DNA of 64,000 nucleotides from a virus: IMG/VR virus record IMGVR_UViG_3300045738_002140, positions 50,177 through 114,176 of that record; one strand, written 5' to 3'. Of the stretch, positions 11,036-50,309 are shown piece by piece; the stretch's first letter is position 1, and every line of letters begins with the position of its first letter. The notes below the pieces were generated by a model. That model saw only the letters and a program-made list of their open reading frames with translations. It was not told the DNA's origin and did no database searches. The position numbers and the translations under genes were made by a program.

Positions 11036-12046
11036 TTAGAAGTCATCTTCTAGGCTCCCTGAACTTTGATAGTCTTTTACTTTTCTTTCGAAAAAGTTGG
11101 TCATGGCCGTGGTGTCAACAACCTCGGACAACCAAGGGAATGGATTCTGGTCACTGTCAAATCGGAAATCAATACCTATGCCTTCAAGTCTCCTGTTACC
11201 GATATACTTCATGTAGTCCACAAACATATCCGCGTTTAAGCCTAGGATTCCTCTCGGCAGAACGTCATGGGCGTATTGAATTTCGAGGTCTACGGCTTTT
11301 TTAATGTGTTCGACCGTTTCTTCTTCGAACTTCTTTGTCCACACCGATGGGTATTGTTTTTTTATTGTGTTAATTAGGTATGTCCCGAACTGTATGTGGA
11401 GGGTCTCGTCCCTTAGGGTATATCTAATCTGGTCTGAAAGTCCCGGTAATTTGTTTTGTCTACCCAGAGCGAGTAGCATGGCAAATCCACTAAAGAAAAA
11501 TGTGCCCTCGCAAACAATGTAATAGGTTATGAGGTTGCGAAGAAACTCCCTTTTGCCTTCTGTTGTTTTTGTGGAAAAATCTTGCCTGTTGACATCTGTC
11601 GTGATCTCTATCAAAAAGTCGTCCTTGGCTTTAATGCTTGGAATATTAAGGTACGCCTCGTAAACCTCCGAGACCTTTAGCCCGTAGCTGTCGCAACAGG
11701 TTACTATCGTCCAGTTATGAAGGGATTCTTCGTATGCTTGCCTGAGTATATATTGACTGCACTCCGCGTCAGTTATCCACCTGTTGACTGTAAGTAATAG
11801 GTTGTTTCCTACTAGGGACTCCGTGCTGGCAAAGAAGCCCAAGCAGCGCCTGACTAGGAGTTTTTCGTCTTTTGTTAGGGCGTCTGATTTCCATTGGTCA
11901 ACATCGTCGCTCATGTTAATCTCGGACGGAGCCCAACTGTTGGCTACGCCCTTTAGGAATAAGTCCCATGCAAATTTATGTTTGTGCGGAAGTATTTGGT
12001 TTACCCCTCCGATTTCTTCCCCTAGTAGTAGCCCTGTTTTGTTCAT
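11036..12046 (-). CDS. nrdB: ribonucleotide reductase beta subunit, class Ic (R2c)-type signature
   Basis: LGFFASTESLV, EESLHNWTI, EGTFFFSGF, YTLRDETLH, NFFERKVKDYQ; TAATG overlap with nrdA sets start 12046. Confidence 0.95.
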   Translation of the reverse strand: MNKTGLLLGEEIGGVNQILPHKHKFAWDLFLKGVANSWAPSEINMSDDVDQWKSDALTKDEKLLVRRCLGFFASTESLVGNNLLLTVNRWITDAECSQYILRQAYEESLHNWTIVTCCDSYGLKVSEVYEAYLNIPSIKAKDDFLIEITTDVNRQDFSTKTTEGKREFLRNLITYYIVCEGTFFFSGFAMLLALGRQNKLPGLSDQIRYTLRDETLHIQFGTYLINTIKKQYPSVWTKKFEEETVEHIKKAVDLEIQYAHDVLPRGILGLNADMFVDYMKYIGNRRLEGIGIDFRFDSDQNPFPWLSEVVDTTAMTNFFERKVKDYQSSGSLEDDF

Positions 12047-14490
12047 TATTGACAACTCTCGCATGAAGGATCTTGTATATTGCAGGCCGCTGGTTCTCCG
12101 TCCTGTGTCGCTTGGGTGAATGATTTTTCGATTTTGCTTGCGGCTTCTGTTCTTAAGTAGTATGTGCTCTTAAGTCCCCTGTTTCTGGCGTGAATATAAA
12201 GGTCGTTCAAGAGTTTAAGAGATGTCTTATTGTTAAACAGGTTTAAGCTTTGGCCCATATCTATCCATTTTTGTCTCGCTGCGGCACCGTCTATCAAAAT
12301 AAATTGATCCTGATCAAACGCTACCCTGTATTGTCTCTTAAGTCCCTCGGGTAGCTCTCCGTTTAGGTCTGCAACATTTCCGTCTACGGCCTTGATCATT
12401 TCTATAAGATTTTTTGACCAAATATTTAGTTTCTTACATTCTTTCACGAACCACTCGTTTGTTATCGTCAGGTTTCCCGATTTGTTTTCGTAGACGAAAA
12501 GGACAGAAAAATCAGGCTCAACAGAAGGAGAGCAACCTTGAATGTAAGATATAGTAGCAGTAGGAGCGACAGCCATAGTGTTACTGTTACGCATACCGTA
12601 AATCCCAATATCATCCCGTAAACTTTTCCAATCCACCTCAGAAACATATTCTTTGCCCTTATGGATGATAGGCTGTTGGTCCAAATAATCCATAAGTTTT
12701 TTATATGTATCTATGGGAAGAGAGCCCTTGCTCCACTTGGAGCCTTCGTAGGTTTGGTATTTTCCTCTTTCCTTTGCTAGTCTGTTTGAATTTAAGATAC
12801 AATGATATGAAATAAATTCATAAAGTTCATCTGAGAATCTAACCGCCTCCTTCGACGAGAAGTCTATTCCATATGAGTGGAAAACGTCTGCCCATCCCAT
12901 CGTGCCTGCTCCGACGGGTCTGTGTTTGTTGTTGGCTTTTTCTGCTTCTTTTGTGGGGTAGAAGTTCAGGTCTATAACGTTATCTAGCATGCGCATTTGG
13001 GTAGCTATGCTTTTAGCTAAAAGCCTGAGGTCTAGCTTTCCGCTCTCTTTAAGGTGGCTCTTGAGGTTTATGGAGCTCAGGTTGCACACCGCTGTCTCTC
13101 CTATTTCGGTCTTTTCCCCGTGCTTATATTTAGAGGCCTTGGTGTGTAAAAAAATTTCTGTACAAAGATTTGAGCTATTTATTATTCCTTCGTGTGAGTT
13201 TGAGTACCTTATATTGGCGTTGTCCTTGAACGTCATCCACGGGTGCCCTGTTTCGTAAAGGGATCTTAACATCTTCTTCCACAAAGATTTAGCTTTTATT
13301 ATCTTATGGTTTTTAATTTCCCCCTCTTCCGCTAGTCTGCAATAATCTTTATATTTTTCATCAAACTTATCGCCGTAGGTGCCGTGAAGATCCTTTACGT
13401 CATTTGGGCTAAAGAGGTACCAGTCTTCGTTTCTTTCTACTTTTTGCAAAAAAAGATTTGGAATCCAATTGGCCGTATTGATATCGTGACAGCGACGACG
13501 CTCTTCTCCAGTGTTCTTCTTTAAGTCTAAGAATTCCTCTATATCTAGGTGCCAAGTTTCAAGGTACGCACATCCTGCGCCGGGGCGTTTGCCGCCTTGG
13601 TTAACCGCGACTAGGAGATCGTTAAATATCTTAAGCCACGGAACAAGACCGCTTGAGGTCCCGTTTGTCCCCTTTATGTAGGACCCTGACGCTCTAAAAT
13701 TAGAGACATCCAATCCTAATCCGCCCGCGAACTTGGATTTCCTAGCTTCTTGCCACGCCCCTTCGAAAATTCCATCTATTGAGTCGTCGAAAGTATTAAG
13801 GTAACAAGAAGAAAGCTGAGAGCGAGCGCCACCGCTATTAAAAAGTGTTGGGGTCGACGGGCAAAGCCTAAATGTAGAGATAGCCTCATAAAATTCAATT
13901 GCTTTCTTTTCTTTGTTTTTTTCATTTAGCGCTAGCCCCATCGCTACCCTCATCCAAAAGGATTGGGGAGACTCTAGTCGCCTGCCGCCCATGCTGTGCA
14001 GGTAGCGATCATATAATATTTGTAAACCAAGGTATTTAAATTTAAAATCTCTTTCGGGGCAAAGGATTTCTGATAATTTTTTTAAGTCAAAATCAAGAAG
14101 CCTTTCGCTTAGAATTCCTTCTTTCACTAGAAGCTTTATGTTTCTTATGAATGATAGTCTGTATTGATGGTCAAAGGCGTCTTTGTCTACGCTGATTCCG
14201 AATACTTCTTTGTGAATATTCCCTAGGAGTAGCCTCGCTGCAACGTAGCTGTAGTTCGGTTCCTGTTCTATCTTCGTCCTTGCGGACATGATAAGGGCCC
14301 TATCTATCTCCTTGGTGGGGATCTTGTCGTAGAGCTGAACGTTCGCGTCGATTACAACTTCGCTAGCAGAAACCCCCTCTAGCCCTTCGCAGGCTCTCTG
14401 CGCGCAGATATTGGCTTTGTTTATGTCGAGGGGCTGCAGTCTGTTGTTTCTTTTCTTTACGTTAAGTATGTTCTTTTTGTGGGGGTCCAT
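12046..14490 (-). CDS. nrdA: ribonucleotide reductase alpha subunit with ATP cone
   Basis: VKKRN ATP-cone, STPTLFN, SSCYL, NQGGKRPG, SSNLCTEI, APTATIS, KSTYYLR, C-terminal CESCQ. Confidence 0.98.
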   Translation of the reverse strand: MDPHKKNILNVKKRNNRLQPLDINKANICAQRACEGLEGVSASEVVIDANVQLYDKIPTKEIDRALIMSARTKIEQEPNYSYVAARLLLGNIHKEVFGISVDKDAFDHQYRLSFIRNIKLLVKEGILSERLLDFDLKKLSEILCPERDFKFKYLGLQILYDRYLHSMGGRRLESPQSFWMRVAMGLALNEKNKEKKAIEFYEAISTFRLCPSTPTLFNSGGARSQLSSCYLNTFDDSIDGIFEGAWQEARKSKFAGGLGLDVSNFRASGSYIKGTNGTSSGLVPWLKIFNDLLVAVNQGGKRPGAGCAYLETWHLDIEEFLDLKKNTGEERRRCHDINTANWIPNLFLQKVERNEDWYLFSPNDVKDLHGTYGDKFDEKYKDYCRLAEEGEIKNHKIIKAKSLWKKMLRSLYETGHPWMTFKDNANIRYSNSHEGIINSSNLCTEIFLHTKASKYKHGEKTEIGETAVCNLSSINLKSHLKESGKLDLRLLAKSIATQMRMLDNVIDLNFYPTKEAEKANNKHRPVGAGTMGWADVFHSYGIDFSSKEAVRFSDELYEFISYHCILNSNRLAKERGKYQTYEGSKWSKGSLPIDTYKKLMDYLDQQPIIHKGKEYVSEVDWKSLRDDIGIYGMRNSNTMAVAPTATISYIQGCSPSVEPDFSVLFVYENKSGNLTITNEWFVKECKKLNIWSKNLIEMIKAVDGNVADLNGELPEGLKRQYRVAFDQDQFILIDGAAARQKWIDMGQSLNLFNNKTSLKLLNDLYIHARNRGLKSTYYLRTEAASKIEKSFTQATQDGEPAACNIQDPSCESCQ

Positions 14491-16478: not shown

Positions 16479-17078
16479 TTATATTTTGTCTGGCCATTGG
16501 TGTTTGCCCTTCATCTTTTTGTTGAGTACTTTAATTCCCCTTTCGTGGAGGTTTATGGCTGTCTGTGTGCTGGCCTTTATTGTCTTAGCTATCTTTGCCC
16601 ACGGAGCCTTCTTCCCGTTTTTGTCGAAGTACCTTAGTTCAAAAACCTGTTTTATTCTTTTATCTTTTAGTTGATTAAGTATATTAAATACAAACTCTAG
16701 GTCGTCTTTGTAGTTTTTCTGTGGTTGTGGGCCGTGGTTGTTCACTAGGTAATCTAGGTCCTTCTCGTCCACGGCGAGATACCTGTTGTTGTTTATTACA
16801 TTCAGGCAGTGGTACTTTATTTGGTTCCCGAGCCAAGTCGAAAACTTTACGTTCCTTGTCGGGTCAAAGCTCTTTGCGGCTTTATAGACATAGAAGTCTT
16901 TTTCTTTGGATACCTCATGTACGCAATGCCCTGACGCCATTATCGCTGGAGAGTATTTTTTATAAATAGTAAAACACAGCGGGCTGTGTCTGCTTATTAA
17001 TTCGCACAGGCTTTTCTCGCAGTTTTCTGCCTTAACGTTTTCTGCTAGGGCTTTGTCTTGAATTAGGTTTTCATCCAT
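16479..17078 (-). CDS. phage RNA polymerase sigma factor (sigma70 family)
   Basis: Region 2 KAAKSFDPTRNVKFSTWLGNQI; region 4 HTH PWAKIAKTIKASTQTAINLHERG. Confidence 0.88.
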   Translation of the reverse strand: MDENLIQDKALAENVKAENCEKSLCELISRHSPLCFTIYKKYSPAIMASGHCVHEVSKEKDFYVYKAAKSFDPTRNVKFSTWLGNQIKYHCLNVINNNRYLAVDEKDLDYLVNNHGPQPQKNYKDDLEFVFNILNQLKDKRIKQVFELRYFDKNGKKAPWAKIAKTIKASTQTAINLHERGIKVLNKKMKGKHQWPDKI

Positions 17079-17512
17079 TTTTCTATCCTTTGTTTAAAAT
17101 TTTCTATACTCATTTTCTTGTCCTCAAATCTCAGGAGGTCTATGTGCTGCCCCTTCATGTCGAACATCCTCAGGGGGGTTCTGGAATACTTTAGTAATTC
17201 TTTTTTTTCTTCCTCTCTAAAGCACTTTTGTTCTTCTATAACCTCTTCACTGTTTAGGGAGTTTATTATTATTTTTACGCATAAAGTGTGTTCATTTTCT
17301 ATTGTTGTTTTGGCGCAGGAAACTGCGAACAAAAATTTTTGGTTGGGTGATATGTGGTTAATTACTTTAGCATAGTTCTCGTTCATAAAGACAGGAAACC
17401 TAGGCTTCATGACAAAAACGGGAGTCACGAGCCCTTCACCGTTCTTGTCTCCTGTTTTAGAAGCGTAGTTCGATATTATTTCTTTAAGCTTTTTCCAGCC
17501 ATTTTTCTTCAT
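17063..17512 (-). CDS. hypothetical protein
   Basis: Overlapping operon member. Confidence 0.6.
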   Translation of the reverse strand: MKKNGWKKLKEIISNYASKTGDKNGEGLVTPVFVMKPRFPVFMNENYAKVINHISPNQKFLFAVSCAKTTIENEHTLCVKIIINSLNSEEVIEEQKCFREEEKKELLKYSRTPLRMFDMKGQHIDLLRFEDKKMSIENFKQRIEKWMKT

Positions 17513-18146
17513 GTTCTCTTAGCCATTTTAGGAATTTTTTAACTTTTGCGGCGACGCATGCTTCGACCTTTTCCATTGTCCCGTGTATGTACTCCAGCTC
17601 TACTCTGTAGTCTGCGTCTTTTTTGACCAACGGGTCTTGCCGTTTTTCTTCTTCGTTTGCGGGTGCGCGGAAGACTTTGCCTATCTTTGTTTTGGGCCAG
17701 TGCCTTTTGTCTGGGGTCTCTTTTATTTCATATTGGGAAATATGCACCAGCACTCCCCCAAGTTCATTCTTGAGCCAGTAGGCTTCGTCCTTTTCGTGTT
17801 CGTTATATCTTATGTCCGTTATACATATAACTGTTGGTTCGTCAAAGCGGAGCACGTCTAGGGTGTGCTGTAGTCTGTCTATCCAGTGCCTTCCCTTTGA
17901 CATTTTTCTCTTTGTCCTCCCGTGACAAACCAATAAGTCTCTTATGCTTTCCTTTTCTTTTCTTGAGCAGCTTAGGGCGTCTATGCCGTAACTTGGGAAG
18001 GTTATGGAGTTTATCTCCACCTTAAGGGCATCTGCTAGAGCAAACCTTTCTGAATTAATTTTTAATTTTTTTAATTCTTTTTTAAGAACCTTGAAGAATA
18101 AATCTTTTCCTGATCCAGCTACGCCTGATAATCCTATATAAAACAT
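17484..18146 (-). CDS. deoxynucleoside monophosphate kinase
   Basis: GLSGVAGSGKD P-loop, ALADALK, ITDIRY.E. Confidence 0.85.
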   Translation of the reverse strand: MFYIGLSGVAGSGKDLFFKVLKKELKKLKINSERFALADALKVEINSITFPSYGIDALSCSRKEKESIRDLLVCHGRTKRKMSKGRHWIDRLQHTLDVLRFDEPTVICITDIRYNEHEKDEAYWLKNELGGVLVHISQYEIKETPDKRHWPKTKIGKVFRAPANEEEKRQDPLVKKDADYRVELEYIHGTMEKVEACVAAKVKKFLKWLREHEEKWLEKA

Positions 18147-18152
18147 CAATCA

Positions 18153-18181
18153 AAGATATCATAAAGTAACCGAAAAGTCAA
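18153..18181 (-). promoter_or_regulatory. sigma70 promoter, leaderless
   Basis: TTGACT-17-TATCTT, ATG 6 nt downstream. Confidence 0.7.
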
Positions 18182-18600
18182 TCGTTAACTTTGACTATGC
18201 TTTTTAGGTTGATTTGAAGGTCTTTGCAGATTTCTAAGGATGAATAGTCATTTTGGTAAATCTCCCCGAAAACTACATTGGGAATTCCGTATGCGGCGAT
18301 GGTTCTTAGGCACTCATTACACGGCAGGTGTGTGCACGCAAGCACACGGCCTTCCCCGGGTTTTATGTATCTTAGTGCGTTTACTTCTGCATGGACCACT
18401 CTCTTTCTTCTCGCATCCCTGTCTTTCCAGTCGATCTCTATGTTGGGGGGAGCCCCGTTGTAACCCAGTGAGGCTACAGAATTGTCTCCTCGGAGAACGC
18501 ACGCCCCAACCTTAAGGTAGGGGTCTTCGCTTCTTTTCGAAGCCACTTTTGCTAGTTCAAGTGCATAGCTTTCCCAGCTTATTCTTTTTGTTTTATCCAT
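18178..18600 (-). CDS. dCMP deaminase
   Basis: KVGAC, GYNG, HAEVNAL, PCNEC. Confidence 0.95.
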   Translation of the reverse strand: MDKTKRISWESYALELAKVASKRSEDPYLKVGACVLRGDNSVASLGYNGAPPNIEIDWKDRDARRKRVVHAEVNALRYIKPGEGRVLACTHLPCNECLRTIAAYGIPNVVFGEIYQNDYSSLEICKDLQINLKSIVKVND

Positions 18601-18601
18601 T

Positions 18602-18654
18602 AAAAGGGGGGGCAGCGCGGCACTGATATGAAAACGGTTATGCCTCGCCGCCCC
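18602..18654 (-). terminator. GC-rich hairpin with 16-nt loop (terminator or sRNA)
   Basis: GGGGCGGCGAGGCAT/GTGCCGCGCTGCCCC stem then CCCTTTT. Confidence 0.55.
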
Positions 18655-18663
18655 GTTGTTGGT

Positions 18664-18939
18664 TCAACTCTGCAAAAAAGACCCTTGTTGGGTGCTCTGA
18701 GCTTTGGAATACAGAACTCGTGGCCTCCCTGCTTTTGGGGTAGACTTTCCGACCACCCTAAGTGCACCGCTTCTTACTGCTGTATTAATCTTTAGCTGGA
18801 TTGATACATTAGACAAGGGTGTTGATACCGTGGAGGCTAAGTCCTTGACTGTAAAGTGGCCGTCCGGCCACTCTACCTTCACTGCTGGTCTTCCGCGACG
18901 CTTTACGTCTGTATTGACTGATTGATTTTGTGTGTTCAT
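18664..18939 (-). CDS. small basic DNA-binding protein (AT-hook-like + wHTH)
   Basis: KRRGRP, FTVKDL, AGRPRVLY. Confidence 0.6.
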   Translation of the reverse strand: MNTQNQSVNTDVKRRGRPAVKVEWPDGHFTVKDLASTVSTPLSNVSIQLKINTAVRSGALRVVGKSTPKAGRPRVLYSKAQSTQQGSFLQS

Positions 18940-18948
18940 ATTCTCTAT

Positions 18949-19011
18949 AAGATAGAATACTTTTATTAAAAAGTCAAAAAAAATTGATTAATTTTTGTTT
19001 GGGCATATTAT
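18949..19011. promoter_or_regulatory. back-to-back divergent sigma70 promoters at the strand switch
   Basis: Minus: TTGACT-17-TATCTT (18977-18949); plus: TTGATT-16-TATTAT (18984-19011). Confidence 0.7.
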
Positions 19012-19018
19012 GCTATTG

Positions 19019-19429
19019 ATGACTTCGCTTGACGCATCTAATAAGCTTTTTGAATGGTTCGCTGAAAACGATACCTTTTCCTTGGAGCGAGACTTTGGCG
19101 GCGTTATGCCTGAGTTTAATGATAGGGAGGAGGGGGGCGCCATACTCACCTGTGCCCTAAGAGATCTTGAAGCAATAGATTTTATACAAAATTGTGGTGA
19201 CTTTTGGGTTTTGAAGAAACCCTTTGTCTCGTTTTCTCAAAACGTAGAGCTACAGCCTCAGGTCTGCTTGGGTATCTCTCAGGTCATCAATGGGTTTTGC
19301 GGTATTATAGGCGACGAATCGGACGCCTGCGACCCTTCTAGGGTACAGCCCAAGGACATATCAAACATGCTGACTATATGCGGTTATCTCATGCAGCAGA
19401 ACGCTCAAGAAAGTGATAAGGAAGAATGA
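19019..19429 (+). CDS. hypothetical protein
   Basis: ORF, ATGA-coupled to next gene; start placed 7 nt after -10. Confidence 0.65.
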   Translation: MTSLDASNKLFEWFAENDTFSLERDFGGVMPEFNDREEGGAILTCALRDLEAIDFIQNCGDFWVLKKPFVSFSQNVELQPQVCLGISQVINGFCGIIGDESDACDPSRVQPKDISNMLTICGYLMQQNAQESDKEE

Positions 19430-20289
19430 ATATAGGAATCGTAGGGAATGGGTTTGTGGGGAAAGCTACCGCCCTGCTCGGGTGCAGGGATGAGCGCGGT
19501 ACTTATCGTTCTGAAGATAATGTCATAATGACTTACGACAAGGACCCAGACAAGAGGGTGCCTAGGGAAGTGGAGCTTCATCATCTTAAGGATTGTGGCG
19601 TGGTGTTCGTATGCGTTCCAACGCCCATGAATAAAGATGGGTCATGTTACACGGGTATCGTTGAGGAAGTCATCGAAGAGCTTCGGTCGAACGACGTCGA
19701 GGATATAGTCATAAGGTCAACTGTGCCTGTGGGGTTTTGTCGCGAGCAGGGCGTTAACTTTATGCCTGAGTTTTTAACTGAAGCTAGCTGGGGAGAGGAC
19801 TTTAAGTCGTGCAGGAACTGGGTGTTTGGTTTAGACGATCCAGACAATAAGGATTTGAAATTAAAATTAAGACAAATATTCTTAACTGCCAAGCATAATG
19901 GCAAAATTAACCATGCTAATTTTATGTTTTGCCCTAGCGAGGTGGCAGAGTTGAGCAAGTACGCTAGAAATTGTTTCTTGGCAACCAAGGTCTCTTTTTT
20001 TAATGAAATAGAAGAATTTTGTAGGGTTAAAAACATCTCGTACGAACAAGTAAGAGAGCTCGTAGGCATGGACGACAGGATTGGGACAAGTCACACCTCT
20101 GTTCCGGGCCCGGACGGAAAAAGGGGCTTCGGTGGAACCTGTTTCCCTAAAGATATAAGTTCTCTTTTTAACCAAATGGCAAGCTCTGGGATGGAAAGCT
20201 ATGTCGTCGAGGCTGCCTGTGCCAGAAATGTGCAGGTGGACAGAAAGGGTCAGGACTGGAAAAATAGCAAAGGAAGAGCCGTGGTTTGA
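19426..20289 (+). CDS. UDP-glucose/GDP-mannose dehydrogenase family, lacking C-terminal domain
   Basis: GIVGNGFVG, CVPTP, RSTVPVG, PEFL, GFGGTCFPKD. Confidence 0.9.
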   Translation: MNIGIVGNGFVGKATALLGCRDERGTYRSEDNVIMTYDKDPDKRVPREVELHHLKDCGVVFVCVPTPMNKDGSCYTGIVEEVIEELRSNDVEDIVIRSTVPVGFCREQGVNFMPEFLTEASWGEDFKSCRNWVFGLDDPDNKDLKLKLRQIFLTAKHNGKINHANFMFCPSEVAELSKYARNCFLATKVSFFNEIEEFCRVKNISYEQVRELVGMDDRIGTSHTSVPGPDGKRGFGGTCFPKDISSLFNQMASSGMESYVVEAACARNVQVDRKGQDWKNSKGRAVV

Positions 20290-20771
20290 ATATAATATTC
20301 GAAAAGACTTCCTTAAGCGCGGTTAAGCCAACAAAACAGCACCCACAAGACGCTGGCTATGATTTGTACAGCACACACAGGGTTGTTATCAATCCAATGG
20401 AAAGAGCAGTCGTCCCAACTGGAATAATCGCTCAAATTCCTGAAGGATATTATGGCAGGATTGCGCCAAGAAGCGGGTTGGCGATCAGGAATGGGGCGGG
20501 CATACTTGCCGGGGTAATCGACTCAGGCTATGCAGGGGAAATAGGCGTCGTCCTTGTGAACTTAAACCTGCCCGTGTCCCTGTTGAACCCAAGCAAAAAG
20601 ATCGCTGCTTTTGAAAACATGTTCGGACAAAAAGGAAAAATAGAAATAAATCCCGGCGACAGGGTAGCTCAAATAATTATTGAAAAATGTTATGATGTGA
20701 CATGGACAGAGTCAACAGAAACAAAACAGTCCGAAAGGGGAGAGGGAGGTTTTGGTAGCTCAGGAATTTGA
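20286..20771 (+). CDS. dut: trimeric dUTPase
   Basis: AGYDL, PRSGLA, GVIDSGYAG, RVAQ, RGEGGFGSSG. Confidence 0.97.
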   Translation: MNIIFEKTSLSAVKPTKQHPQDAGYDLYSTHRVVINPMERAVVPTGIIAQIPEGYYGRIAPRSGLAIRNGAGILAGVIDSGYAGEIGVVLVNLNLPVSLLNPSKKIAAFENMFGQKGKIEINPGDRVAQIIIEKCYDVTWTESTETKQSERGEGGFGSSGI

Positions 20772-20796
20772 CTTTCGTACATAAAGCAACTATAAT
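20768..20796 (+). promoter_or_regulatory. consensus sigma70 promoter driving a non-coding region
   Basis: TTGACT-17-TATAAT. Confidence 0.88.
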
Positions 20797-20800
20797 CAGA

Positions 20801-21152
20801 AAACGGTAAAGTCCGTTTAAGCTCGCTGAGAGAAAACAGTGGAGTTTCCCCTAGGTGAGACATAATTTGTCAGGGTGGCAGCAGGAGCCCCAACCCTAGG
20901 GAATACCTGCTAGGGAAATACACACCCATTAAAAAACTGATAGGTAGTTCCTATCGCAATGCCCCGGCGTGTTGTGGTAACTGCTGTAAGGAGTTTTCAA
21001 GCACAGTTTCTCCGCCTGTAAAAAGGTAGGTAGTTTCAGGTAAAACTGATCGTGTATGTCTGCTGAATGTCCCCTCAGCTTCAAAAAAACAGGGCTTAAA
21101 GAAGGCGAAAGACATGCTCAAAACCCTCTCTCGTAGGGGGTTTTGTCTTTTC
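20801..21152 (+). ncRNA. candidate ~350-nt structured ncRNA
   Basis: No ORF >=60 aa; promoter at 5' end, hairpin AAAACCCTCT/AGGGGGTTTT plus U-rich tail at 3' end; nested helices and a pseudoknot (see findings). Confidence 0.65.
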
Positions 21153-21214
21153 TCCTTAAGAAAGGCGTCAACATACTTTTGAAAAAATTATTATAAATTG
21201 ATATATTTTACTAG

Positions 21215-21568
21215 ATGGATATCGATTATGATGTTGTTCTTGCTAATTCTTTTATAAGCTGTGCTGTGTTACTGGTCTGGTTTAAGACTGAGGCTGTGCT
21301 AGAATACGCAAAGCTATTCGGCTTGGGTAAGATTTTCTACGAAAAAGAATATGAAAAATTTGCAAAGACTAATATGTTTCTTGGGTACCACGATTTTCTT
21401 TTAAAAAAACATAACTGTTTTGTAATGAGGCTTATCACTTGCCCTGTTTGTCTTACGGTTTGGATGAGCGTTTTTTTTGCTTTATTTTTTGGTTTTTATT
21501 ACTTGTGTCCTAATATTATTATTAGTTTGAGTATCTATTTTTTTGTGTTAAAATTAATGAAGGATTAA
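21215..21568 (+). CDS. membrane protein with CPxC (DUF1360-like)
   Basis: LITCPVCLTVW plus TM helices. Confidence 0.6.
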   Translation: MDIDYDVVLANSFISCAVLLVWFKTEAVLEYAKLFGLGKIFYEKEYEKFAKTNMFLGYHDFLLKKHNCFVMRLITCPVCLTVWMSVFFALFFGFYYLCPNIIISLSIYFFVLKLMKD

Positions 21569-49747: not shown

Positions 49748-49825
49748 GCTCCGGTAGCTCAACTGGTTTAGAGCACACGCCTTATAAGCGTGAGGTTGTG
49801 GGTTCGAGGCCCACTCGGAGTACCA
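49748..49825 (+). tRNA. tRNA-Ile(UAU)
   Basis: Acceptor GCTCCGG/TCGGAGT, D stem GCTC/GAGC, anticodon stem CACGC/GCGTG with loop CT-TAT-AA, T arm GTGGG-TTCGAGG-CCCAC, A73, encoded CCA. Confidence 0.95.
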
Positions 49826-49838
49826 ATTTTAAATAGAT

Positions 49839-50309
49839 ATGAAAACTTTCACAAAATGGTTCCTGCTCAACGCAGTCACGTTAACTGCTGTTTTTTTTGC
49901 AGAAACAAAAGGCGCAATCTCAACAATGGTTAAAAATGATGTTAGCTATATAACCATTGTTATAATGGCCCTATACGTGGTTATCTCTATAATGGTGGGA
50001 AGGCTGTGCTTTTTGTCAGACAAAATAAACAAAGGCAGAGAAAAAGAAGCGAGAAGGCACCTATCAAAGAGAGCAGAGGTTGGCTGGTTCGCCGCAGAGC
50101 ACTTTTTTTCGCTCGGCCTGTTGGGTACAGTTTTTGGGTTGTGCCTAGCAACCTCAACCAATCTTGGTACAGACGCCCCCGTAAGTGATATAGTAGCTGG
50201 GCTCAAGGTGGGACTAAACACTGCATTTTATACTACCATTTGTGGCATAGTATTCAGCCTTGCCCTGCAAATACAACTAATGATTTTAAGATTTAAGCTA
50301 GAGGAATGA
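49839..50309 (+). CDS. MotA/TolQ/ExbB proton-channel family protein
   Basis: LGLLGTVFG, GLNTAFYTTICG. Confidence 0.88.
   Translation: MKTFTKWFLLNAVTLTAVFFAETKGAISTMVKNDVSYITIVIMALYVVISIMVGRLCFLSDKINKGREKEARRHLSKRAEVGWFAAEHFFSLGLLGTVFGLCLATSTNLGTDAPVSDIVAGLKVGLNTAFYTTICGIVFSLALQIQLMILRFKLEE

Follow-up and report, generated by a model that had tools for sequence, protein, structure and literature searches.

A stretch of DNA from an uncultured marine phage, 64,000 nucleotides (nt) long (positions 50,177 to 114,176 of the IMG/VR record IMGVR_UViG_3300045738_002140; hereafter the window), very probably carries a genuine stand-alone gene for a structured RNA of about 345 nt, whose family is absent from Rfam. 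The predicted RNA extends on the plus strand from 20803 to 21148, from an inferred start to the U-tract of a terminator, and conservation among its homologues covers the full length (nhmmer E-values of 1e-42 to 1e-97). Covariation suggests a 5' hairpin and, after it, a core of approximately 300 nt whose hairpins would be locked together by no fewer than five or six long-range pairings. An earlier note on this DNA had proposed a 'novel large phage ncRNA', and this description holds: the element is conserved, covarying, non-coding, independently placed, and without an Rfam family.

Homologues and Distribution

Ten full-length matches were found among IMG/VR loci around dUTPase homologues (nhmmer E-values of 3e-42 to 6e-15). 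Two specific DNA patterns and a profile hidden Markov model raised the number of distinct sequences to 27, and one metagenome scan contributed 43 further matches. The collection of homologues and the test for covariation, which the earlier note had suggested, together yielded a pool of 54 distinct full-length copies on viral and metagenome contigs, of which 41 have less than 95% identity, and helices that covary on sets of 23 and 41 sequences. In each genome, as far as the record is available, the RNA is present in one copy.

The family is known so far only from a lineage of large uncultured marine phages. A blastn search with positions 20700-21220 against 50,697 records of cultured or deposited phages gave no match. 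When a loose pattern for the core was used on viral contigs, most matches were due to chance and two were new members; in bacterial and archaeal genomes the same pattern gave at least 120 matches among those listed, all of which nhmmer showed to be chance. In single marine metagenome runs, a wide variety of diverged contigs matches the conserved blocks 20805-20860 and 20950-21040, which implies that numerous variants of the RNA family co-occur in one sample.

Comparative Evidence for the Fold

The fold model was built by eye and by a scan of column pairs, and was then counted formally on an alignment of 23 sequences (A2); a larger alignment comprises the 41 sequences below 95% identity. RNAalifold predicted 41 pairs on the first alignment, 27 of them with compensatory changes. 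On A2, 80.4% of the cells are paired, versus 68.2% in shuffled alignments and 36-46% when the partners are slid by one to three columns. Both sides have changed in 62 of the 83 pairs, and none of 500 shuffles attained any of the observed measures. The same helices are upheld on the 41-sequence alignment, where those that align well are nearly perfectly paired (H2, for instance, at 97-98%). Compensatory changes thus back about 12 hairpins or helices and five to six long-range pairings, namely the pairings PK1 to PK4 (PK, pseudoknot), helix X, and the closing helix Pz.

The variable parts of the RNA are out of register in the MAFFT alignment, therefore an alignment-free test was used there. In this test, the duplex energy of two segments from the same genome is compared with the energy obtained when one segment is swapped for that of another genome; the values below (in kcal/mol) are given in this order. 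H1, H3, PK1, H6, PK2, H11, and Pz pass at p<=0.0005, while segment pairs serving as negative controls give p>0.4. These p-values are generous, since phylogeny is ignored, yet the controls behave.

All elements of the fold lie on the plus strand. The 5' end is formed by H1 (20801-20818), a hairpin with the stem AAACGG/CCGUUU (-5.2 versus -4.1) that had been predicted earlier and is supported by covariation. It is followed by H2 (20822-20844; CUCGCUG/CAG-U-GGAG), which is 95-98% paired with compensatory changes and has the conserved loop AGAGNAAN. The H3 domain (20846-20903) is closed by the outer helix UUCCC-C-UAGG x CCUA-GGGAA, which passes the duplex test; its column counts are depressed by misalignment. 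The earlier note had allowed TTCCCCTAGG to pair with either of two copies of CTAGGGAA. The first copy is the covarying partner in H3, whereas the second is paired in only 42% of cases. Inside H3 lie H4 (20859-71), which is found in one clade only, and H5 (20874-91).

Two of the pseudoknots were foreseen in the earlier note and are borne out by covariation. In PK1, the H5 loop AGCAGG (20880-85) pairs with CCUGCU (20906-11; -6.7 versus -5.0), and inspection of the alignment by eye reveals the variants GGCA/UGCC, AGAGCA/UGCUCU, and AAUGGU/ACCAUU. In PK2, the loop AUACAC (20918-23) of hairpin H6 (20913-20927; -6.3 versus -1.8) pairs with GUGUAU (21052-57; -6.4 versus -4.9). The H7 hairpin GAUAGG/CCUAUC (20939-20955), predicted likewise, is 99% paired and all six of its pairs have changed on both sides.

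Further along lies a three-way junction (20979-21035), where H9 encloses H10, H11, and the invariant sequences GUAA (20986-89) and AGGUAG. For this region a helix AACTG (20979)/CAGTT had been proposed, which is only 69% paired; both of its strands have better covarying partners elsewhere. These are H9, in which AACUGCU (20979-85) pairs with GGUAGUU (21029-35; 98% paired, seven of seven pairs with double changes), and PK3, in which AAAC (20934-37) pairs with GUUU in the H10 loop (21006-09; four pairs, 100% paired). In 8-14 of the 41 sequences an A-U pair of PK3 has become G-C. The proposed pairing of GGCG with CGCC is not conserved either (50% paired in 41 sequences). H10 (20990-93 x 21010-13) is 98% paired, and H11 (21015-17 x 21024-26) is supported by the duplex test. 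The 16-nt loop of H10 acts as a hub that pairs with two distant strands: besides PK3 it forms helix X, where GUGU (20969-72) pairs with GCAC (21001-04; 94-98% paired, double changes in two of four pairs). Other bases at the junctions are invariant as well: the A-rich strand 20932-36, CCC...GG at 20963-77, UUUU at 20994-97, and the AGGUAG just mentioned, at 21024-29.

Towards the 3' end, the H12 hairpin UCAG/CUGA (21036-21049) is 84-88% paired, has double changes in all four pairs, and carries GNRA loops in several relatives. The H13 hairpin GCUGA/UCAGC (93% paired; five of five double changes) forms a domain (21062-21094) with the H-type pseudoknot PK4, in which CCC of the H13 loop (21071-73) pairs across an A-rich linker with GGG (21092-94; 96% paired, two of three double changes). 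Around this domain, Pz (21054-21117) joins strand a, GUAUGUCU (21054-61), to strand b, AGACAUGC (21110-17). The Pz duplexes comprise 7-10 base pairs and differ in sequence across 30 genomes (-8.0 versus -5.2). Pz encloses H13, PK4, and the purine tract of the direct repeat DR1 described below.

Which parts of the earlier description were peculiar to this sequence? A conserved fold stands, but several of the helices listed, and the 'alternative pairings', are found in this sequence only. The proposed closing helix TTAAGCT/GGCTTAA is 77% paired, does not covary (p 0.12-0.16), and clashes with H2 and PK4; as helix P1 (UUUAAGCUC x GGGCUUAAA) it can form in the window, and it was rejected for want of covariation. 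AAAACTGAT and TAGGTAGTT do occur as direct repeats in the window, yet relatives have not retained them.

Transcription Signals and Coding Potential

The extent of the RNA was set by the positions of its promoter and terminator. A consensus scan identified the sigma-70-type promoter TTGACT-17-TATAAT noted before at 20768-20796, with 11 of 12 matches and an expected start at about 20803. In approximately 14 of 27 relatives a TTGAC -35 box is found at a fixed distance from H1. The terminal hairpin of the earlier note is an intrinsic terminator (21119-21151), consisting of AAAACCCUCU-CUCGU-AGGGGGUUUU followed by a U-tract; its 11-bp (base-pair) hairpin spans 21119-21145 and a T-run follows. The upper stem is 90% paired in the alignment of 41 sequences. 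The stem can be extended by pairing of AAAGACA (21108-14) with UGUCUUU (21144-50), and this lower part covaries too (-5.4 versus -4.5, p<=0.0005).

There is no plus-strand open reading frame (ORF) of 30 or more amino acids between 20771 and 21215, in agreement with the ORF-free stretch reported earlier, and no reading frame on either strand is kept open across 23 homologues. The longest open stretch shifts frame and strand between genomes, so that neither a small peptide nor a protein is indicated. Indels among the homologues are not multiples of three, and substitutions cluster at paired positions. A 23-codon ORF with an ATG at 21114 (21114-21185, plus strand) spans the terminator and the repeat beyond it, and is preceded by GAAGG. 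An equivalent ATG is present in one relative (L004) and absent from most others; judged by sequence, this ORF is probably due to chance.

Comparison with Rfam Families

Does the RNA belong to a family that is already described? The earlier note did not recognise one, and searches of Rfam 15 agree with it. At the gathering score, the only match in the window is a tRNA-Ile at 49748 and the RNA region has none; with relaxed filters and E<=10, only terminator look-alikes over 21039-21163 are returned. A cmscan of 18 homologue loci gave tRNAs only. The models for ROOL, GOLLD, OLE, raiA, and HEARO match neither the window nor these 18 loci, the model of the C4/CI antisense RNAs (RF01695) does not match, and no self-cleavage motif or Rfam ribozyme family was matched. 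The family is best rated as a structured RNA of a new class, since it falls outside all Rfam families and fits none of the mechanisms with which it was compared.

A length of about 345 nt is similar to that of RNase P RNA, transfer-messenger RNA (tmRNA), and group I introns, and several H-type pseudoknots are also a feature of tmRNA. It could therefore be argued that the RNA is a very divergent member of one of these large classes. This is extremely improbable, and the idea is already largely refuted. RNase P RNA (RF00010/RF00011) gives no match at the gathering score or at E<=10, ARAGORN finds no tmRNA, and the tmRNA model (RF00023) is likewise without a match, as is any conserved ORF. Even at E<=10 with relaxed filters, no model of these classes matches. 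The group I intron model (RF00028) does not match either, the RNA lies between complete genes with its own promoter, and no flanking exons are present. The order of the helix strands is unlike that of the group I intron and RNase P cores. A likeness of GGUAAAGUCCG and AAACAGGGCUUAA to the CR-I and CR-V motifs of RNase P was considered and rejected; these strings are not kept in 27 homologues, and they fall in H1 and in PK4/DR1, where they are not paired together.

Gene Neighbourhood

The viral contig is 114 kilobases (kb) long and is estimated to be 66% complete. Its genes include a lambda-J-like tail protein, a DnaE-type polymerase, a DnaB helicase, and a large block for sugar synthesis; comparison of the J-like tail protein and the DnaE-type polymerase revealed no close cultured relative. 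In the window, minus-strand genes stop near 18940 and plus-strand genes run from 18995 to the window end. The strand switch at about 18950 is 1.85 kb upstream of the RNA, where the earlier note had put it at about 2 kb. The RNA thus lies 1.85 kb into a rightward block of at least 45 kb.

Immediately 5' of the RNA region ends the dUTPase gene dut (20286-20771, plus strand; Pfam dUTPase, E-value of 4e-33), and the next gene on the 3' side, starting at 21215 on the plus strand, encodes a membrane-type protein of 117 amino acids with a weak match to DUF1360. A nucleotide-metabolism cluster surrounds the RNA (17484-20771): a dNMP kinase-like gene (17484-18149), a dCMP deaminase gene (18178-18600), a truncated UDP-glucose dehydrogenase-like gene (19426-20289), and dut. 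Genes for a class I ribonucleotide reductase are found at 11036-14490.

The most constant neighbour of the RNA is an acidic protein of 144 amino acids ('family 0'; 18995-19429, plus strand), which is present at 25 of 27 loci and for which no named relative was found in Pfam, PHROG, tblastn, or Atlas searches. Another protein, of 199 amino acids and encoded 4 kb upstream on the minus strand (16479-17078), has weak PHROG matches to sigma factors and transcription regulators; judging from these matches, the phage may redirect transcription itself. The only tRNA in the window is the tRNA-Ile (anticodon TAT; 49748-49825), 28 kb from the RNA and found by both ARAGORN and Rfam. Two relatives have tRNA genes at a distance of about 0.6 kb on the downstream side of the RNA (L015:4557-4734 and L008:4539-4609).

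Two types of synteny are found among the loci. In type A the order is family 0, (UDP-glucose dehydrogenase-like), dut, RNA, DUF1360-like; in type B, family 0 is immediately upstream of the RNA and dNMP kinase follows, with dut and the DUF1360-like gene adjoining on the opposite strand. The unit of RNA, terminator, and the repeat copy DR2 beyond it has moved as one between these two gene neighbourhoods. The gene downstream of the RNA is not constant, and in several loci it is convergent. Such differing contexts and convergent neighbours argue for a stand-alone RNA and against a leader or riboswitch of one downstream gene.

A leader acting in cis has nevertheless to be weighed. The RNA might be a riboswitch of very large size, or might act as a processive antiterminator in the manner of HK022 put, and would then gate the 43-kb rightward block: promoter, structured domain, and terminator follow each other in the classic order, every large ORF between 19.4 and 62.7 kb is encoded on the plus strand, and the neighbours dut, dCMP deaminase, dNMP kinase, and ribonucleotide reductase are genes of nucleotide metabolism. 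In addition, strand b pairs in a mutually exclusive way with strand a or with the base of the terminator. However, competition with Pz is confined to the lower extension of the terminator stem, and the alternative pairing leaves the G+C-rich upper stem intact. No same-strand downstream gene is constant across the two types of synteny, and the core is far above known aptamer sizes. Moreover, the next gene in the window has a separate sigma-70-like promoter, TTGAAA-17-TATATT with a TG (21179-21207, plus strand), between DR2 and the DUF1360-like gene, which therefore need not rely on read-through. A cis-acting leader is thus highly improbable.

The Repeat around the Terminator and the 3' Tail

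The direct repeat that flanks the terminator is a second conserved feature of the locus. DR1 (21095-21117, plus strand), about 23 nt long, starts right after the GGG of PK4 and reads CUU-A-AAGAAGGCG...AGACAUGC, that is, a YCN triplet, one extra base, a purine tract, and Pz strand b. In every genome it recurs as DR2, 8-12 nt past the U-tract; in the window DR2 (CUU-AAGAAAGGCG...AACAUAC) occupies 21155-21177 on the plus strand, and conservation of the element ends with it. DR2 is present in 41 of 41 sequences and is always 1 nt shorter than DR1.

The two copies are alike within genomes. The local alignment score of DR1 is 12.9 with the DR2 of its own genome versus 7.6 with the DR2 of other genomes (p<=0.0002), and in 23 of 25 genomes its own DR2 ranks first or second. 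Nearly all genomes have CCG, CCU, CUU, or UCU as the leading triplet, and inspection by eye shows the same triplet in both copies of a genome. The base that follows this triplet in DR1 is always an extra one, so that simple gene conversion does not account for the likeness. No further copy of the repeat was found nearby; the notion of a mobile cassette was dropped, as there is no third copy upstream of the promoter. Elsewhere in the window the motif has 15 loose matches, none of them close, versus 7.9 expected, and it is not a genome-wide signal. Direct repeats are not a general feature of the other terminators of this phage. No joint that deletes the terminator between DR1 and DR2 was seen among the contigs of four marine DNA runs, although contigs miss rare variants; in these runs, the contigs were only diverged relatives of the conserved blocks.

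What might the repeat pair with? When segments were slid along the RNA in a duplex scan and columns were compared by mutual information, only Pz was recovered for the end of DR1, besides DR2 itself; neither the triplet nor the purine tract gained a partner. Strand b covaries both with strand a, in Pz, and with the bases that follow the U-tract (a'). Strand a in turn also fits the end of DR2 (b'; -4.3 versus -3.6 kcal/mol, p 0.0055). From these tail strands an exchange scheme a·b / b·a' / a·b' can be drawn. The 3' tail might accordingly be a two-state module, in which strand b would either close the core with strand a or lengthen the terminator stem; in transcripts that read through the terminator, DR2 would offer strand a a second partner. 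Taken together, the tail suggests a relation with read-through of the RNA's own terminator or with the DNA just beyond it.

One form of this relation would be an RNA that senses or controls read-through of its own terminator. In the antisense RNAs CI of phage P4 and c4 of P1/P7, a box that is single-stranded pairs with complementary boxes repeated within one transcription unit, and by analogy with these a regulatory role of this kind is the favoured reading of the tail, if clearly on the improbable side. It leaves unexplained why the likeness of DR1 and DR2 extends over the YCN triplet and the purine tract. A bolder proposal, and a doubtful one, is that RNA, terminator, and DR2 form one self-referential device of an undescribed kind, whose core reads the state of the cell or of the polymerase. 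In one version, the core would use the exchange of a, b, a', and b' to re-form around DR2 in read-through transcripts and would switch the 43-kb early-to-middle operon. In another, DR1 and strand a would pair with both DNA strands of DR2 and open an origin. If such a device exists, the core would be a new functional class of RNA, catalytic or sensing, and specific to marine phages.

The DNA beyond the terminator also enters the idea of a replication-origin RNA in the style of ColE1 RNA II or T4 oriF/oriG; the earlier note had raised a replication-primer RNA. The purine-rich DR1 RNA would hybridise with the template at DR2, and processing of the resulting R-loop would supply a primer for the leading strand. 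DR1 and DR2, which lie on the same strand, are almost identical and covary within genomes, the common core of the two is a polypurine tract, and the DNA beyond DR2 is AT-rich both in the window and in several relatives. The RNA gene is always 0.5-2 kb from a divergent strand switch, and cumulative GC skew climbs from about 18 kb. However, when GC skew was analysed as a check for origin function, its change coincided with the coding-strand switch, which it merely tracks. A strong terminator stands between DR1 and DR2, making a co-transcriptional hybrid unlikely, and the 3' end of the RNA would be an unpaired hairpin. In the match of the two copies, a 1-nt bulge is invariably accompanied by other mismatches. 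An origin RNA would not explain the need for a pseudoknotted core of 300 nt. The repeat is compatible with RNA-DNA pairing past the terminator without demonstrating it, and an origin RNA is very unlikely overall.

The replication genes bear on the same question. In the available 66% or so of the genome no RNase H gene was found, and the phage encodes its own DnaB helicase along with a probable primase, which speaks against an RNA primer of the ColE1 kind. A reverse transcriptase gene was not found in this part of the genome either. Outside the window, a gene for a DnaB-type helicase (E-value of 1.5e-22; G000:C1:40722-42184, minus strand) lies beside a weak DnaG-primase-like match, and a DnaE-type polymerase is found at L102:15211-17853. 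From these matches, the phage appears to carry much of its own replisome.

Function of the Core

A constant architecture in changing gene contexts, together with a 5' hairpin and a strong terminator, points to a stable trans-acting RNA. Provided that the gene is real, the balance tips towards a trans-acting RNA whose folded core does the work, either in a complex with protein or as a particle of RNA only, and not towards a leader of the next gene. Host RNA polymerase would transcribe it early in infection, and the core would work with a protein, a ligand, or copies of the RNA itself.

Two special cases of a working core deserve mention. ROOL RNAs are about 580 nt long. ROOL and GOLLD are large 'ornate' RNAs of phages and prophages whose structures were studied by cryo-electron microscopy; they are often found near tRNA genes, and many GOLLD RNAs exceed 800 nt (PMC12286853). 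Like these nanocages, the RNA could be a homo-oligomeric particle made of RNA only: it is phage-borne, ornate, and rich in pseudoknots, no partner protein is in sight, and tRNA genes are located within about 0.6 kb in some relatives (L015, L008). On the other hand, at about 345 nt it is well under the more than 800 nt of GOLLD (PMC12286853) and is also shorter than ROOL. The alignments, examined by eye, showed no conserved palindromic loop for symmetric kissing contacts, and proximity to tRNA genes is inconstant, the nearest one in the window being 28 kb away. An RNA cage of this type is unlikely.

A ribozyme, which the earlier note had also considered, would have to be of a new class and is about as unlikely. 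Its substrate might be the RNA itself, with the extra base of DR1 as one conceivable site, or another RNA. A globular architecture with multiple pseudoknots, invariant junction nucleotides, and the single base by which DR1 and DR2 systematically differ, always at the same position, would all fit catalysis. By contrast, no Rfam ribozyme family matches, and conserved junctions are equally expected for the binding of a protein or ligand.

Several points weigh against a stand-alone, trans-acting RNA with the fold described here. No candidate for a partner protein or ligand was identified. About half of the relatives have no recognisable sigma-70 promoter; these may use another type of promoter or may be transcribed by read-through from the upstream gene. 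The ends, abundance, and timing of the RNA derive from sequence signals only. The fold of the single sequence is barely better than that of shuffled sequences (z = -1.94), and thus the case rests on the comparative evidence and not on folding energy. Finally, PK2 and Pz share 4 nt, the 3' strand of the former overlapping the latter, and P1, H2a, and PK4 compete for the same bases, so parts of the model may be alternatives instead of one fold.

Significance

To our knowledge, large intricate RNAs with conserved tertiary pairings are rare, and nearly all of the characterised ones carry out fundamental biochemistry. Characterised large folded RNAs include ribosomal RNA, RNase P, group I and II introns, riboswitches, and tmRNA. 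A complex class that is found in many abundant ocean phages, and is apparently an early product of the host polymerase, is a candidate for a new RNA function in infection, and more than 50 natural sequences make it a defined target for structural work. The conserved, covarying repeat on either side of the terminator poses a question of its own and might point to a new coupling of RNA folding to termination or to DNA.

Relation to Known Systems

Several known systems share individual features with the RNA. Transcriptional riboswitches and T-box leaders likewise have a promoter, a conserved fold, an intrinsic terminator, and one strand that takes part in two helices. Here, however, different genes follow the RNA in different loci, some of them convergent, and the upper part of the terminator stem is never tied up in another pairing. 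ColE1 RNA II and T4 oriF/oriG are promoter-driven structured RNAs near a likely origin with a segment that matches downstream DNA; in the present case the DNA in question lies on the far side of a terminator and is matched imperfectly.

The P4 CI and P1/P7 c4 RNAs (Rfam C4) are about 70-90 nt long and are processed from the operon that they control. They resemble the tail described here in that strand a is complementary to b in DR1 and to b' in DR2, a likeness that consists of sequence complementarity only. By contrast, the RNA is approximately 345 nt long, has a large independent core, and does not match Rfam.

The nearest analogues are ROOL and GOLLD, which are also phage-encoded, non-coding, highly pseudoknotted, and orphan, and the proximity of some relatives to tRNA genes adds to this resemblance. 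There is no similarity to them in sequence or by covariance model, and the RNA described here is much smaller. In contrast to ROOL and GOLLD, it has its own sigma-70 promoter and a repeat that flanks its terminator.

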